DNA of 20,000 nucleotides from an uncultured virus (IMG/VR IMGVR_UViG_3300008110_000081) (Duplodnaviria; Heunggongvirae; Uroviricota; Caudoviricetes). Where the stretch lies: the IMG/VR virus record IMGVR_UViG_3300008110_000081; one strand, given 5' to 3'. The stretch's first letter is position 1, and every line of letters starts with the position of its first letter. The notes beneath the pieces were generated by a model. The model saw nothing but the letters and a program-made list of their open reading frames with translations. It did no database searches and was not told where the DNA came from. Positions 2,415 through 20,000 of this stretch are shown here, piece by piece. The position numbers were made by a program, and so were the translations under genes.

Positions 2415-4622
2415 TTATCTTATATTTTTAAAAGGATTTCTTGGTGCTTGCATGCGACCAGGATTTCCTCTACCTTTTCCAATATGCCGGAAAGGGCTGT
2501 TACTTAATTTAAACAAATTTGCTGACTTTTCCAAGTGTTTTCTGTCAGTATTTTCAACTCTTTTTTTATAACCCCTATTTGCTTGCTGAACTTTAGCAAA
2601 AGCAATCAGTGCTCCTAGTGCTACCAGCCTATCCACGTTTATGTCTGAGTTATAAGCTTGCATCTCTTTCATGGCCATTGGATCAGGAATACGCTCAATG
2701 CCATAATATGTTTTTACAATAGTACCATCATCTTTAGTGTCAACATCTAATTCTTCTTTGAGAAACTCAATAAGATAACTTAAGATGTGATTCTTAAACA
2801 ATGTTCCTGTATTCTTCCAACCATATTCTTGAAACACGTTCCGGTTTGAGGACAACTCTTTCAAGAAAAAGATCTGATCTTTAGGTACAAGATAGCGCTG
2901 TTTGTGCTTACTTATCATGTACTGTATAAACAAAGATACGTTATTTTCTATTAAAGTCCACGAGTTATACCACTCAATTATTAAAGCAAGTCTTTCATGA
3001 GTTTTATTGATGTCATCAAAACGTCCGCACCATGCAGCAACAATCTTATCTCTCTCAATATAAGTCTCTGTTTTATCAGCATCAATCTTAGTTACTTCTA
3101 CAGGATTCTTATAAACGTAAATAGAACATAAAGATTCTGAGGTAGTTGTTTTACCTTCTGACACTGGGTCAATAGAAGCGTAGTAAGTTCCCCACTCTGC
3201 ATTAGGATCAGGTCTTTCCCACACAACTAATGTTCCTGTTTTGTCTTCAGTGTTTTTAGTTATTGGGAATTCAGATATAGGAAGCTTGGTTGTTAGATGA
3301 GGTTCTATTTTACCTGAGGCATCACGTTCAAGATTTATAAACTCGTAAGCATAATCTTTTTCTTCAATACGGCGAGTTTGTGCAGCTACTAAGTTTTGCG
3401 GGAATAGTGATACACTCCTGTAAGCAAATGCTTCAGCAATATTACGCGGATGCTGAGATATACGCAATTGGTATTTTTCTGGTGTAAGATCTTTCTTCCA
3501 CTTTTCAAATTTAGCATTTAAAGATTCTAAGGCTTCTTCAACAAGTGAGTTACCATACTTATCAATATATGGAGGCATTGACCATTGTTCAGGAATAAAC
3601 AAAGCTGATTCTCCTATAGTGCCTTTATCATCAATTAAGTTACTAGTGACAGGGTAGATACTATTCACAACGGGATATATTGTCATTTGCTTCAGTGGCT
3701 CACACTGATCTAAATCACCTACTGTTCCTGCTGCAATAAAGATACCTGTTGTAATATTACCTGATTGTAATGCTGGAAATAAGTACTCAACAGTCTTGTC
3801 CATATGTGGTGCAACACCGGCTTCTTCATAGAAGAAAATACGTACAGCACCACCGACACCTGAGGTATCACTCTTTTCAAAACTCACACCTTGTATTGTA
3901 CCTTTTAAACCTTTTAATGTTGATCTACCATCTGAACCGGTATCTTCAATTTGTTGTTGCCACATTAAAACTTTACTAGGATTCATAGGACGGTACCAAG
4001 CAGTCTTATCATCTAAGAATGACTTATACTCAGTTAAGAACTTCCATGAACCTTTATCATTAATGTAATCTTTTAATGAAGCACCTATCTTAAGGATTGG
4101 TGTTTCCTCAAACCAAATCTGATTAATCATTTTGGCCATATGGTAATAGGAGGAACCAAACTGCCTTTTCTTTAATACGGCCGCGTGCATCCAATGTAAT
4201 TCTGCCAACAACTCATATAGAGCCATGTGATACTGACTATCCCAGATATCTGGAAAATCAAATTTCTTTTTTACTTTATCATTGATTGGTAGGAAATTGA
4301 CCCACATGTAATACTCACGTGGTAAATACCAAGTGTCATTCTTACCTTTAAAAATAACACCGTTACGGCATTTGTTTTTCTGATCATTCCAATAAGCTAA
4401 GAAATCTTTACTGCCCTCAGGATAAGGACAAAAATAACGTAGCTTGTTAAATTTTCTTGCTTGAGTATTAAACTCAAAAGCCGTTTCATCAAAATTGTAC
4501 TGACCAGGTTCTTTAAATAAAGATAAAACAAAATCTTTAAACTCATCCCGTGTATTAAACGTGGTTGTGGACCATTCATCATTTTCCCAAGTAGGAACTA
4601 CTATGTATGGTTTATCATCCAT
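2415..4622 (-). CDS. terL: Terminase large subunit (735 aa)
   Basis: Walker A-like KKRQFGSSY, Walker B FFYEEAG, coupling motif AGTVG, and RNase H-like nuclease acidic motifs SIDPV and DRLVA. Length and adjacency to the portal are typical of crAss-like TerL. Confidence 0.93.
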   Translation of the reverse strand: MDDKPYIVVPTWENDEWSTTTFNTRDEFKDFVLSLFKEPGQYNFDETAFEFNTQARKFNKLRYFCPYPEGSKDFLAYWNDQKNKCRNGVIFKGKNDTWYLPREYYMWVNFLPINDKVKKKFDFPDIWDSQYHMALYELLAELHWMHAAVLKKRQFGSSYYHMAKMINQIWFEETPILKIGASLKDYINDKGSWKFLTEYKSFLDDKTAWYRPMNPSKVLMWQQQIEDTGSDGRSTLKGLKGTIQGVSFEKSDTSGVGGAVRIFFYEEAGVAPHMDKTVEYLFPALQSGNITTGIFIAAGTVGDLDQCEPLKQMTIYPVVNSIYPVTSNLIDDKGTIGESALFIPEQWSMPPYIDKYGNSLVEEALESLNAKFEKWKKDLTPEKYQLRISQHPRNIAEAFAYRSVSLFPQNLVAAQTRRIEEKDYAYEFINLERDASGKIEPHLTTKLPISEFPITKNTEDKTGTLVVWERPDPNAEWGTYYASIDPVSEGKTTTSESLCSIYVYKNPVEVTKIDADKTETYIERDKIVAAWCGRFDDINKTHERLALIIEWYNSWTLIENNVSLFIQYMISKHKQRYLVPKDQIFFLKELSSNRNVFQEYGWKNTGTLFKNHILSYLIEFLKEELDVDTKDDGTIVKTYYGIERIPDPMAMKEMQAYNSDINVDRLVALGALIAFAKVQQANRGYKKRVENTDRKHLEKSANLFKLSNSPFRHIGKGRGNPGRMQAPRNPFKNIR

Positions 4623-8326: not shown

Positions 8327-8358
8327 CAAATATAATATAAAAAGTTTAAACTTACAAA
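8327..8358 (-). promoter_or_regulatory. Bacteroidota sigma-type promoter (-33 TTTG / -7 TATATTTG)
   Basis: The minus strand reads TTTG-taagtttaaactttttatat-TATATTTG, a perfect TTTG-N20-TAnnTTTG match, in the intergenic gap. Confidence 0.8.
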
Positions 8359-17368: not shown

Positions 17369-18289
17369 TTAATAACTTACAAGCATATCAATAAGTTCTT
17401 GTTGCGGGAACATATCAACTTTACCTTTCTGAACATTAGTGTGAGTCCATAGACCTTTAGTTTTTGCGCACATTGTCTCATCACATGTATCAAAAGCTTT
17501 ATGAGCACCAGCCGACCTAATCAACTCAGGTAGTCCTTTTCTAACATCAATCCCATCACGTTCTCCTATAAACAAGATAAGCTTTTTAAGATTCTCAATT
17601 TGTTTATTAGAGTATCTATGCCAGAACTCATACCCACGGAAAGCTTTACTTAATCTAACAACTTGTTCAGGAGCAGCTTCAACACCCACGTAAGTATAAA
17701 ACGAGTTTGGTTTTAAAGCAATCCATCTGCCATCCTTCTTGTAACCACCTTTAGTAAGCTGACCAAAGTTACACACTTCAATACCAATTGAGTTTTTATG
17801 CATAACATTATTACCAGTACCTAGATGCCAGGCATAACCACTACGAGGAAATGACTGCACGATAACTCCATCAGACTTAACTTCATCACCTTTAATAGAC
17901 TGACCGCCTAGAACAAACTCAGTTGCTACAGGACCACGAGTATCTTTACCCCATTGAGTAATAGTATTAAAAGGATCATGCCAGCCGGCAGTATGATGTA
18001 GAAACAACCACTCTTTCTTAGTAGGCCCAGCTAGATACTCACCAGTAGGAAGATGTAATCTCTTAATTTCAAGAGAAGACTCTTTCTTTTCAGACAAGTC
18101 CGTTGTGATGTACCCCATCTTAGTCATAGTATCAGTACCAACAATCCCATCCGGCGTTAACCCGTGGGTTAATTGCCAAGCCCTAACCTTAAGCTCAGTA
18201 CCTGAACCAAAGATACCATCATCTTTAACATTTAAAAATTTCTGTAACTGCTTTACATGCTCACCAGTAGATCCAAATCTTAAAACCAT
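17369..18289 (-). CDS. Endolysin: peptidoglycan-binding domain plus N-acetylmuramoyl-L-alanine amidase (306 aa)
   Basis: LRFGSTGEHVKQLQ...DGIFG..T...V..WQ...GL.PDGIVG..T (PG_binding_1) and Amidase_2 motifs LHHTAG, AWHLG, SIGIEVCN, HTNV..K.D..P. Start moved from 18334 to 18289 because the longer extension overlaps the promoter at 18304-18335. Confidence 0.9.
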   Translation of the reverse strand: MVLRFGSTGEHVKQLQKFLNVKDDGIFGSGTELKVRAWQLTHGLTPDGIVGTDTMTKMGYITTDLSEKKESSLEIKRLHLPTGEYLAGPTKKEWLFLHHTAGWHDPFNTITQWGKDTRGPVATEFVLGGQSIKGDEVKSDGVIVQSFPRSGYAWHLGTGNNVMHKNSIGIEVCNFGQLTKGGYKKDGRWIALKPNSFYTYVGVEAAPEQVVRLSKAFRGYEFWHRYSNKQIENLKKLILFIGERDGIDVRKGLPELIRSAGAHKAFDTCDETMCAKTKGLWTHTNVQKGKVDMFPQQELIDMLVSY

Positions 18290-18303
18290 AATAATTTTTT
18301 TTG

Positions 18304-18335
18304 CTAATATACACACTATAAGAGACATAAACAAA
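18304..18335 (-). promoter_or_regulatory. Endolysin promoter TTTG-N20-TATATTAG
   Basis: Minus strand TTTG-tttatgtctcttatagtgtg-TATATTAG, followed by an A-rich 14-nt stretch and the ATG. Confidence 0.7.
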
Positions 18336-18359
18336 AATCCCCAGAATTATCCAGGGATT
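18329..18359 (-). terminator. Intrinsic terminator (minus strand)
   Basis: AATCCCTGGA-TAAT-TCTGGGGATT stem-loop (10 bp including two G-U pairs) followed by TTTGTTT. Confidence 0.65.
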
Positions 18360-18408
18360 ATTGTAGAAAAAAAATCAAGCAAACAATAGAGAATCTCTAT
18401 ATGAAGTA

Positions 18409-18416
18409 CAAATATA
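18409..18416 (-). promoter_or_regulatory. -7 promoter element TATATTTG with weak -33
   Basis: Perfect TAnnTTTG (gTATATTTGtac) in non-coding DNA; the -33 position is only a T-tract. Confidence 0.5.
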
Positions 18417-18512
18417 CACAACGCTTTTTAATAAAAAAATTTTGGAGTATAAAAAAACAAGATGAGTGTTAGTTTGAGTGGTATATGAAAATCATATGTG
18501 TATTAGTTTGAG

Positions 18513-18563
18513 GGGGGTCTATTATAACAGGCCCCCGGCAAAACTTCCAGAGTGGGGTACCCC
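18513..18563. other. GC-rich hairpin and palindrome at the strand switch (possible terminus/packaging or origin element)
   Basis: GGGGGTCT-attataac-AGGCCCCC (18513-18536) and the perfect palindrome GGGGTACCCC (18554-18563) in otherwise AT-rich non-coding DNA. The function is inferred. Confidence 0.45.
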
Positions 18564-18670
18564 CTAGGCAAATTATTACAGCGTTTCAAATCCAGGGTGA
18601 GTATATAAAAGAATTCTTTTTGCTAGAAAATGTTGATGGGTCTAGGTTACTGAAGGAATGATGGTGATGC

Positions 18671-18749
18671 TACATGTCTTTCTTCCTTGTCATCATACGT
18701 TACATGTCACAGGTCAACCTCATCACTACTACATGTCACTGATCAACTA
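18671..18749. repeat. Degenerate ~30-nt tandem repeat with TACATGTC core
   Basis: TACATGTC at 18671, 18701 and 18730; the units catcatacgttacatgtcacaggtcaacct and catcactactacatgtcactgatcaacta align. Confidence 0.8.
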
Positions 18750-18757
18750 GATGTTTA

Positions 18758-18780
18758 TATTATATTAGGCCTTTCCTTGT
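18758..18780 (+). promoter_or_regulatory. Repeated upstream motif, copy 1 (candidate early promoter)
   Basis: TATTATA-ttag-GCCTTTCCTTGT, 31 nt before the ATG at 18812. Confidence 0.6.
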
Positions 18781-18811
18781 GCTTGCCTACTAACCAATAG
18801 GTACTATAGCC

Positions 18812-19078
18812 ATGTATACATTACGTTACAGATCATCACAACATCCAGAGTCATTAAAGGTTATTGAGTTTCATCTATATGATGCAGCTCTACAACATGC
18901 AGTTAATCTACATTACGTAGGCATTAGAGGTAGATATCAATTCTGGGATATCACTCTTGATGGAGAACACGTTGACTGGAAAGAAGCTGAGATATTCTTA
19001 GCTTACAAAGCGGATCTTGAGAGAAGACAAGACTTCATTGAAATGAGAAGCTCTGAAGCCGATGAATTACCCTTCTAG
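18812..19078 (+). CDS. Small early hypothetical protein (88 aa)
   Basis: Flanked by the motif upstream and a UUCG terminator downstream; ends in the acidic tail ADELPF. Confidence 0.75.
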   Translation: MYTLRYRSSQHPESLKVIEFHLYDAALQHAVNLHYVGIRGRYQFWDITLDGEHVDWKEAEIFLAYKADLERRQDFIEMRSSEADELPF

Positions 19079-19084
19079 TGATAT

Positions 19085-19107
19085 AGCCCTTCGGGGCTTT
19101 ATCTTTT
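19085..19107 (+). terminator. Intrinsic terminator
   Basis: AGCCC-TTCG-GGGCT followed by TTATCTTTT, 6 nt after the stop codon. Confidence 0.75.
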
Positions 19108-19153
19108 CCCACGTCACTCCGCTCCGCTTCGTTCCTATCAACTAGCTGTCTAG

Positions 19154-19181
19154 TATTATACCTGGGCCTTTCCTTGTCACT
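19154..19181 (+). promoter_or_regulatory. Repeated upstream motif, copy 2 (candidate early promoter)
   Basis: TATTATA-cctgg-GCCTTTCCTTGT-CACT; similarity to copy 1 extends upstream (ATCAACTAGnTGTnTA). Confidence 0.6.
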
Positions 19182-19184
19182 GCT

Positions 19185-19340
19185 ATGATCACAACTACCA
19201 TTAGCACTGAATTGTTCCAGGAACAAATCGTGCGCGTCCTTGCCGTAACGTATAACAACGGCACAAGTAAGCGTTACTTAAACGCAGAGGGTGTTCCATT
19301 CCACATTGTTTGGATACCTAAAGACAAGCAGGGTAAATAA
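19185..19340 (+). CDS. Small hypothetical protein (51 aa), absent from the ORF track
   Basis: MITTTISTELFQEQIVRVLAVTYNNGTSKRYLNAEGVPFHIVWIPKDKQGK*; fills the space between motif copy 2 and an 11-bp hairpin. Confidence 0.6.
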   Translation: MITTTISTELFQEQIVRVLAVTYNNGTSKRYLNAEGVPFHIVWIPKDKQGK

Positions 19341-19351
19341 CCTGCTTGTCT
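19322..19351 (+). other. Perfect 11-bp stem-loop over the stop codon (terminator or processing site)
   Basis: AGACAAGCAGG-gtaaataa-CCTGCTTGTCT; no strong U-tract. Confidence 0.55.
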
Positions 19352-19384
19352 ATTACTAATCATTAATCATTTAAAATTAAAACC

Positions 19385-19660
19385 ATGAGACACTTTCCAA
19401 ATTTCACAAAGACACAAGCAGCTGTGTTTAAACTTGCAGTATTGTATGTAGTAACAGCTATATGCTTCTTGTTCATTGCCTTCTCTTGTACTACAAGTAA
19501 GAAAGCTATCACAGGTAAAATTGATGCTTGCCCTAAATGGGTAAACAACATCAAGAACCCTGAGAATGAGGAGTTCGTAGTTGAGGTTGCATTCAACTTA
19601 AACAAGCCTGTTAGTCAGGTAACACAACAAGAATTTAATAACCGTTACTTAAACAATTAA
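19385..19660 (+). CDS. Small putative lipoprotein/membrane protein (91 aa)
   Basis: A-rich leader (aaaattaaaaccATG) and a hydrophobic stretch ending in the lipobox-like IAFS-C. Confidence 0.7.
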   Translation: MRHFPNFTKTQAAVFKLAVLYVVTAICFLFIAFSCTTSKKAITGKIDACPKWVNNIKNPENEEFVVEVAFNLNKPVSQVTQQEFNNRYLNN

Positions 19661-19664
19661 TATT

Positions 19665-19796
19665 ATGTTATCACTTATGTTAGGCTTTCCAGTAGCCATG
19701 TCAGACGACAAAAGCTGGACAGGTGCGCGTAAAGCTGTTGCTCTTGTATGGATTGCCATACTAGATGTACTTATCATCGCCGTATGCTGTATGTAA
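19665..19796 (+). CDS. Small membrane protein (43 aa), absent from the ORF track
   Basis: MLSLMLGFPVAMSDDKSWTGARKAVALVWIAILDVLIIAVCCM*; starts 4 nt after the previous stop and is followed by a hairpin. Confidence 0.55.
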   Translation: MLSLMLGFPVAMSDDKSWTGARKAVALVWIAILDVLIIAVCCM

Positions 19797-19803
19797 TTCG
19801 TGG

Positions 19804-19844
19804 TGAATAGCTGGGTGGGACACTAACGTGTCCTGCCCTATTCA
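19804..19844 (+). terminator. Stem-loop after the small ORFs (probable terminator/processing hairpin)
   Basis: TGAATA-gct-GGGTGGGACAC-taac-GTGTCCTGCCC-TATTCA followed by TCTTATT. Confidence 0.55.
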
Positions 19845-19927
19845 TCTTATTACAATGGTAAGTGGTTTTACTATCATCCTCACACACGCGCTCAAGGCTC
19901 GCTCCGCTCGCTCTCACCTTGTGGTCA

Positions 19928-19954
19928 TATTATATCAAGCCTTTCCTTGTCACT
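19928..19954 (+). promoter_or_regulatory. Repeated upstream motif, copy 3 (candidate early promoter)
   Basis: TATTATA-tcaa-GCCTTTCCTTGT-CACT; the 12-mer core ends 28 nt before the ATG at 19979. Confidence 0.6.
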
Positions 19955-19978
19955 AGTATTAACTTAAACCAATTCGCC

Positions 19979-20000
19979 ATGGCACAACCATTTAATGAGA
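19979..20000 (+). CDS. Probable start of the next early gene (MAQPFNE..., truncated)
   Basis: ATG after an A-rich leader downstream of motif copy 3; only 7 codons are visible. Confidence 0.4.

Follow-up and report, generated by a model that had tools for sequence, protein, structure and literature searches.

A two-box motif repeated before the early gene cassettes of a crAss-like phage, a candidate promoter for a virion RNA polymerase

Introduction

In phi14:2, a phage of crAss-like type, gp66 makes early RNA in the presence of rifampicin, prefers single-stranded DNA and transcribes foreign single-stranded DNA well, and the E. coli holoenzyme read the middle promoters, as reported in the main text of the preprint, which describes no detectable common motif for the early transcripts (10.1101/2020.03.07.982082). 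Early genes of crAss001 are on within 10 min (PMC8375218, PMC10136315). In the Thermus phage P23-45, an AT-rich pre-early motif was assigned to the two-barrel virion polymerase gp96, and a 26-nt termination motif was described for this polymerase in the pre-early genes (PMC10770324). Very stable mini-hairpins formed by GCGNAGC-type 7-mers are found at phage priming sites, GNA mini-hairpins also at plasmid priming sites (PMC13037366), and such mini-hairpins are present at N4 early promoters (PMC4496689). On the host side, TAnnTTTG at -7 is the primary-sigma element of Bacteroidetes (PMC7366714). A literature search that covered the phi14:2 study as preprint main text turned up no paper in which the early promoter of crAss-like phages is defined, and the word “promoter” does not occur in the available part of PMC11054128.

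Here we describe a motif array in a 20,000-nt stretch of an uncultured virus (IMG/VR IMGVR_UViG_3300008110_000081; this whole stretch is referred to as the window), which an earlier reading of the letters without database searches (the sequence-only reading) had proposed to be the early promoter of the phage's own polymerase.

Genomic setting and motif copies

The phage is crAss-like, as the sequence-only reading had assumed: a terminase, portal, and capsid gene block of crAss type is present, the terminase (Table 1) being ~25% identical to Crassvirales terminases and 81% identical to that of the complete record G007, with which the capsid-block genes of the window lineage share 65-94% identity. 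A non-coding strand switch (18290-18757) separates the late arm from small plus-strand genes of no known family.

Table 1. Positions of the features discussed, in window coordinates
Feature	Position	Strand	Basis or remark
Large terminase, crAss-like type, late-arm marker	2415..4622	-	PHROG 6681, E 7.7e-62
Endolysin (PG-binding + amidase), first late-arm gene	17369..18289	-	Pfam PF01471, PF01510
Host-type TAnnTTTG box TATATTTG, upstream of endolysin	18409..18416	-	Kept in 5/5 aligned sequences
G/C-run element at strand switch	18512..18564	.	Contains half-site TATTATA-N4-GCC at 18520
Motif copy 1	18758..18780	+	First element of early arm; TATTATA invariant, right box nearly so (6 distinct variants)
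88-aa gene, cassette 1, no family	18812..19078	+	Unrelated 133-aa gene instead in 3/6 sequences
Intrinsic terminator, end of cassette 1	19085..19107	+	Terminator scan
GCGGAGC DNA mini-hairpin, template strand, before copy 2	19121..19127	-	Inside purine tract
Motif copy 2, spacer 5	19154..19177	+	ATG 7 nt downstream
Cassette 2: three small genes (51, 91, 43 aa)	19185..19796	+	No family; kept in relatives
Terminator-like hairpin, end of cassette 2	19813..19848	+	Terminator scan
Second conserved 13-mer	19867..19879	+	Also further down array (L089:1588)
GCGGAGC DNA mini-hairpin, template strand, before copy 3	19901..19907	-	Sequence match
Motif copy 3	19928..19950	+	Exact 12-mer match
Start of 70-aa gene	19979..20000	+	Complete in L089, L117; copies 4, 5 beyond window

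The three intergenic, co-oriented copies of a 12-mer on which the sequence-only reading was built are exact: GCCTTTCCTTGT occurs on the plus strand at 18769, 19166, and 19939, and is the sole 12-mer present three times in the window. Its description of an upstream TATTATA (here at 18758, 19154, and 19928), a spacer of four or five nucleotides, and a nearby ATG also agrees with our measurements, the spacer to the right box being 4, 5, and 4 nt and the distance from the motif to the next ATG 31, 7, and 28 nt for copies 1, 2, and 3 respectively. A triple 12-mer arose in 0 of 2000 dinucleotide shuffles of 18600-20000, and in 17 of 200 when the window was shuffled in its entirety, so that the significance of the motif rests on its clustering. 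With a two-box weight matrix, the three copies scored 32.7 bits and the next-best site in the window 10.4, and no site on the minus strand of the window exceeded 8 bits.

The contigs L117 and L089, identical to the window over their overlaps, extend the array, and together with record G001, its rightward continuation, they add two more full and two partial copies on the same strand. The lineage therefore has five full copies, all intergenic and on one strand, and the expected clustering before co-oriented early genes was found, with the motif restricted to the beginning of that arm. In close relatives the flanks drift, TATTATA is unchanged, and the right box is almost unchanged. The ATCAAC.. 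stretch common to copies 1 and 2 (18742, 19137) and the partial copy TTCCTTGTCA at 18683, which had been listed alongside the motif, are indeed present in the window, but neither is kept in the relative L001, and both therefore probably lie outside the signal.

In wider searches, the exact motif pattern had 0 matches in viral contigs and annotated phage records gave no DNA match. A metagenome scan returned 52 loci, eight of which are window relatives (by BLAST or flanks); the others are single motif matches, and those inspected looked like chance. The single Rfam match was at chance level. Copy 1 has what we take to be a resemblance to a dif site; this likeness is absent from the other copies and was dropped.

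The motif is always co-oriented with genes and lies 7-90 nt upstream of a start codon or of a small non-coding unit. Most copies adjoin terminators, with a gap of 0-60 nt and no TAnnTTTG between; in the window, terminators precede copies 2 and 3 by 47 and 80 nt respectively. Ahead of copy 1 the plus strand carries no gene, leaving nothing to terminate, and the first copy likewise heads the arm in G002, L171, and L181-L183. In three of the six sequences compared, an unrelated 133-aa gene stands in place of the 88-aa gene that follows copy 1, with breakpoints downstream of the leader and upstream of the stop codon, outside the motif.

Several other features were observed at the switch and in the array. 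The G/C-run element is possibly a genome end or origin, and similar elements are present at the switch of G025, G032, G033, G034, G035, and phi14:2. A 34-nt tandem duplication at the switch of the window (18447-18514) is single in L001, L086, and L088. Clusters of tRNA genes lie on the late strand beside the switch in G007 and G021 (L152:4030-4300; L270), and none was seen there in the window. Within cassette 2, a 14-bp inverted repeat (19322-19351) separates the 51- and 91-aa genes, with no motif downstream. The second conserved 13-mer stands in non-coding array DNA and has three copies in the distant L173 (4829, 6926, 7810), a lineage without a promoter-like motif. Further down the array are paralogous 115- and 120-aa genes of no family (L117:1542-1889 and 2999-3388), each with its own motif copy, and both are kept in G007 at 77-79% identity. 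An acidic tail with LPF ends unrelated first early genes in the window (18812-19078), in the swapped 133-aa gene (L086, L088, L104), and in G002 (L140:15913-16110). This tail resembles the C-terminal tail of bacterial SSB, and the early proteins may therefore act as mimics and bind DNA-repair proteins of the host.

Host-type promoter elements

Boxes similar to the TAnnTTTG box upstream of the endolysin occur at 8327, 15000, and 17359 of the window. In the late-arm non-coding gaps of the window, G002, G003, and G007, TAnnTTTG was found 28 times in sense and 5 times in antisense orientation (binomial p 7e-5), to which the window contributes 4 and 0 respectively. In the arrays it is nearly absent: there were no sense matches in the 858 non-coding nt of the window array and one in L117, and in the four arrays together it occurs once in ~4.2 kb. 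The motif itself does not match TAnnTTTG, the Bacteroidetes primary-sigma element, which agrees with the sequence-only reading. Its view that two promoter systems face away from each other here likewise fits the sequence, TAnnTTTG being enriched in the late arm and hardly present in the arrays.

A sigma-70 scan was at chance (8 found vs. 11.2 expected). The reverse reading, in which TATAAT on the minus strand would be a late or antisense promoter, was rejected because there is no -35 at 16-18 nt, the scan is at chance, and the motifs of the relatives lose TATAAT.

Motifs in related genomes

In the complete record G007, the early genes and their order are those of the window lineage, but a motif of its own stands before them, namely before the orthologs of the 70-, 115-, and 120-aa genes. 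Yet other motifs are present in G002 and G003, within 2-3 kb past the switch, and seed matches fell inside the array in 12 of 13 cases in G002, 10 of 11 in G003, and 5 of 7 in G007. We surveyed 21 long polymerase-bearing records, comparing motif counts with resampled controls. A clear own motif was found in eight (G002, G003, G007, G012, G025, G026, G033, G034), and another eight (G020, G021, G027, G029, G031, G032, G035, G036) were weak, with 3-5 well-placed copies at or near control counts; for instance, G020 (terminase 79%) has three copies, a count at chance. No array was found in the remaining five (G022, G023, G028, G030, G037), among which the stretch was cut or missed the switch in G022, G028, and G037. 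In L173/G022 (G022 terminase 70%), terminators delimit the units, which show no distinct motif beyond a T-tract and TAAA.

A conserved 74-aa early gene, with 106 matches at E <=0.001 and none of them annotated, gave access to further loci, 17 of 19 of which were run (two duplicates of G002 and G007 were dropped). Further motifs were found in L170, L171, and L181-L184, and little or no motif in L168, L172, L173, L176, and L186. The sense strand of most motifs is pyrimidine-rich. Neither the phi14:2 sequence nor the start of the early arm of crAss001 showed such an array.

Some observations in these genomes concern other elements. G002 and L181 have in common a candidate small RNA (L140:16900-17010; L181:5645-5750), a motif-headed unit of ~110 nt whose ends pair and which lacks a long ORF. 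Behind the TROVE gene of crAss001 (L188, 96.1-96.8 kb), tRNA-like non-coding DNA holds four copies of a 12-mer and may contain Y-RNA-like genes. A DUF2828 protein of G007 was considered as a homolog of the early TROVE protein of crAss001 and dropped (E only 0.007). A probable intein, inserted in frame and ~360 aa long, splits the terminase of G036 (G036:C1:77076-80336).

Virion polymerase homologs in the relatives

The sequence-only reading looked to a large virion RNA polymerase gene elsewhere in the genome as support. A gp66 homolog is present in close complete relatives; the gene is not in the 31-kb fragment G001, and no polymerase-bearing record overlapped this fragment to give a physical link. 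The 3437-aa protein of G007 matches phi14:2 gp66 at E 2e-27 (22% over 938 aa) and by profile at E 3.5e-33 (0 of 200 shuffles). A giant polymerase gene with DFDxD was found in 5/5 relatives whose records reach the region, and also in G012. The polymerase homology of these giant proteins rests on the direct comparison with gp66, and PDB sequence searches with them returned no polymerase.

The polymerase core is only 32-42% identical among four relatives. Based on hand-defined motifs, some of them from 2-3 copies, motif likeness was correlated neither with the identity of the polymerases (Mantel r -0.07, p 0.72; 16 genomes, 120 pairs) nor with that of the terminases (r 0.06; 16 genomes). Individual pairs give evidence in both directions: G027 and G036 (polymerase 87%) share their motif, G025 and G029 (polymerase 76%) have a low motif likeness score, and the motifs differ within G003/G035 and within G033/G032, where identity is 87-89% for the terminase and 40-46% for the polymerase core. 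In the latter two pairs, the polymerase module seems to undergo exchange or very rapid evolution.

Template-strand mini-hairpins

GCGGAGC mini-hairpins on the template strand precede copies 2-5, i.e., four of the five full copies, with none at copy 1, and this is a new observation. The sequence-only reading mentioned neither these minus-strand sites (19121, 19901) nor the two extra full copies, the half-site at 18520, and the terminators before copies 2 and 3. The array has eight GCGNAGC matches (six separate sites) vs. 0.45 expected, with a maximum of three in 200 resamples. In the window lineage, the hairpins lie 20-33 nt upstream of the left box (a spread of ~13 nt), and their canonical stem is only 2 bp. 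DNA folding of eight strands with ViennaRNA gave z of -1.4 to +1.4 and no hairpin support; the ViennaRNA model has no stabilization by sheared G.A pairs. The purine tract could extend the stem by such G.A pairs, and symmetric changes in L104 are in favor of this extension.

In a broader set of 85 copies from 10 lineages, 20 copies have a GNA triloop on the template strand, closed by at least 3 pairs and no more than 45 nt upstream, vs. 7 downstream and 2 on the opposite strand, these copies being non-independent. The GNA loop is constant and the stems are variable; the distance is 12-17 nt and nearly fixed within a lineage, and the triloops are found mostly at the last array copies.

Proposed function and alternative explanations

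The two-box motif is very probably a promoter, judging from its sequence and placement. Our preferred reading, to which we assign a probability of about 0.65, is that it would be an immediate-early promoter read by an injected gp66-like RNA polymerase, alone or with a co-injected subunit. The proposal of the sequence-only reading that the motif is the early promoter of the phage's own polymerase is supported in part, by the placement of the motif, the absence of the host box, gp66 in the relatives, and the eight of 21 polymerase-bearing records with a clear motif of their own; the lack of a common early motif in phi14:2, the missing array in crAss001 and in five of the 21 records, and the missing correlation of motif likeness with polymerase identity speak against it. 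The replacement of the motif before the same genes in G007 fits a changed phage-encoded reader rather than a host sigma factor. Under the preferred reading, the AT-rich left box would melt or be bound upstream, and the pyrimidine-rich right box would place the start no more than a few bases from the box end, a limit suggested by copy 2, where a conserved ATG follows after 7 nt. Each unit of motif, one to three small genes, and terminator may be transcribed separately, and the last copies may drive the replication arm by read-through. The GNA mini-hairpins would perhaps help to open the DNA at some copies for an enzyme that prefers single strands, and the repeats may double as gene-swap points. 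Small phage shares were present in six of nine listed RNA runs, all as contigs; four were compared, and they carry no start, strand, or level.

It is unlikely that the motif is instead a promoter for the host RNA polymerase, recognized through an alternative (ECF) sigma factor or through an injected phage factor that redirects the host enzyme in a PeSL-like manner. The cassettes do share the anatomy of PeSLs (PMC2839356), Bacteroidetes have many ECF sigma factors whose motifs are mostly unknown (PMC7366714), the left box resembles a -10 element, the E. coli holoenzyme reads the middle promoters of phi14:2, and the motif shows no overall tracking of the virion polymerase. Yet the motif differs between phages that share the late-arm TAnnTTTG box, the sigma-70 scan remained at chance, and the early genes of phi14:2 are rifampicin-resistant. 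Considerably less probable is a role mainly in termination, pausing, or RNA processing or translation, with the motif joined to the terminator and initiation taking place elsewhere or independently of sequence. Such a role would account for the terminators adjoining most copies and for the motif-less units of L173/G022, and it has parallels in the termination motif of P23-45 (PMC10770324) and in the ready transcription of foreign single-stranded DNA by gp66; it is at odds with the first copy, which in the window and at least five relatives has no upstream gene on its strand, and with the gaps between terminator and motif in the window.

A repeat serving recombination or protein binding (cassette swap, operator, or replication/priming), with no promoter role and with the hairpins as single-strand priming signals, seems slightly more remote again. 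The gene behind copy 1 is indeed swapped among close relatives, and GNA mini-hairpins are known from phage and plasmid priming sites (PMC13037366), but the swap breakpoints lie outside the motif, which is asymmetric, strictly co-oriented with genes, and kept 7-90 nt before a start codon or small non-coding unit. That the repeats are functionless relics of local duplication is hardly credible: the additional upstream stretch common to copies 1 and 2, and not found in a relative, is what such duplication could leave, yet the boxes and their 4-5 nt spacing are kept between differing flanks in the window and its relatives, and many genomes show a like pattern built from other sequences.

A bolder extension of the promoter reading, which we regard as doubtful, is that the crAss-like two-barrel virion polymerase, related to QDE-1, an RNAi polymerase of eukaryotes, uses a fast-changing two-box promoter without sigma and is loaded at a subset of copies by GNA mini-hairpins. 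This would be a convergence with N4 and would imply dozens of orthogonal pairs; with a hairpin extended by G.A pairs, only one strand could fold.

The arrays of this clade provide explicit candidates for the promoter of a crAss-like virion polymerase. The motif is a testable candidate start signal because host promoters lack it and related phages substitute versions of their own. Complete records that pair a motif with the polymerase gene (G002, G003, G007, G025, G033) turn the question into a direct in vitro test. If true, the preferred reading would show by what means a two-barrel polymerase without sigma locates its start and would supply orthogonal polymerase-promoter pairs.

Comparison with known systems

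Phage-specific early promoters and terminator-promoter cassettes are already known kinds of elements. The locus resembles phi14:2 in its divergent early and late arms, in the homologous polymerase of the window's close relatives, and in the host-type promoters of the late arm, but the early units of phi14:2 have no common motif in the preprint's main text, whereas the early units here begin with a strictly repeated motif. Coliphage N4 (early promoters P1-P3) likewise has an injected polymerase preferring single-stranded templates and a template-strand hairpin with a sheared G.A loop close to the early starts (PMC4496689). However, the N4 polymerase is T7-like, and the window's relatives encode a gp66-like two-barrel enzyme; the hairpin is on every N4 promoter and at four of five copies here, and the N4 stem has 5-7 bp centered at -11 (PMC4496689), compared with a canonical stem of 2 bp located 20-33 nt upstream of the left box in the window lineage. 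From its sequence, the mini-hairpin is best regarded as an accessory feature outside the N4 class.

The PeSLs of the T4-type phages RB49 and phi1 are similar to the array in that small unknown genes are separated by a terminator joined to an early promoter and that genes are swapped among relatives (PMC2839356). Their promoters follow the host sigma-70 consensus (PMC2839356), whereas the motif here matches neither sigma-70 nor TAnnTTTG and differs between lineages. The array therefore belongs to neither the PeSL nor the N4 class. Phage P23-45 also has a phage-specific motif cluster before its first genes and an injected two-barrel polymerase (PMC10770324). Its enzyme differs in being fused to the tape measure protein, and its starts were mapped and its polymerase occupancy shown (PMC10770324). 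As in P23-45, the motif in the window lineage is conserved, non-host, co-oriented, and confined to the first early genes. By analogy, the array would function like the pre-early promoters of P23-45 and be built like PeSL cassettes.
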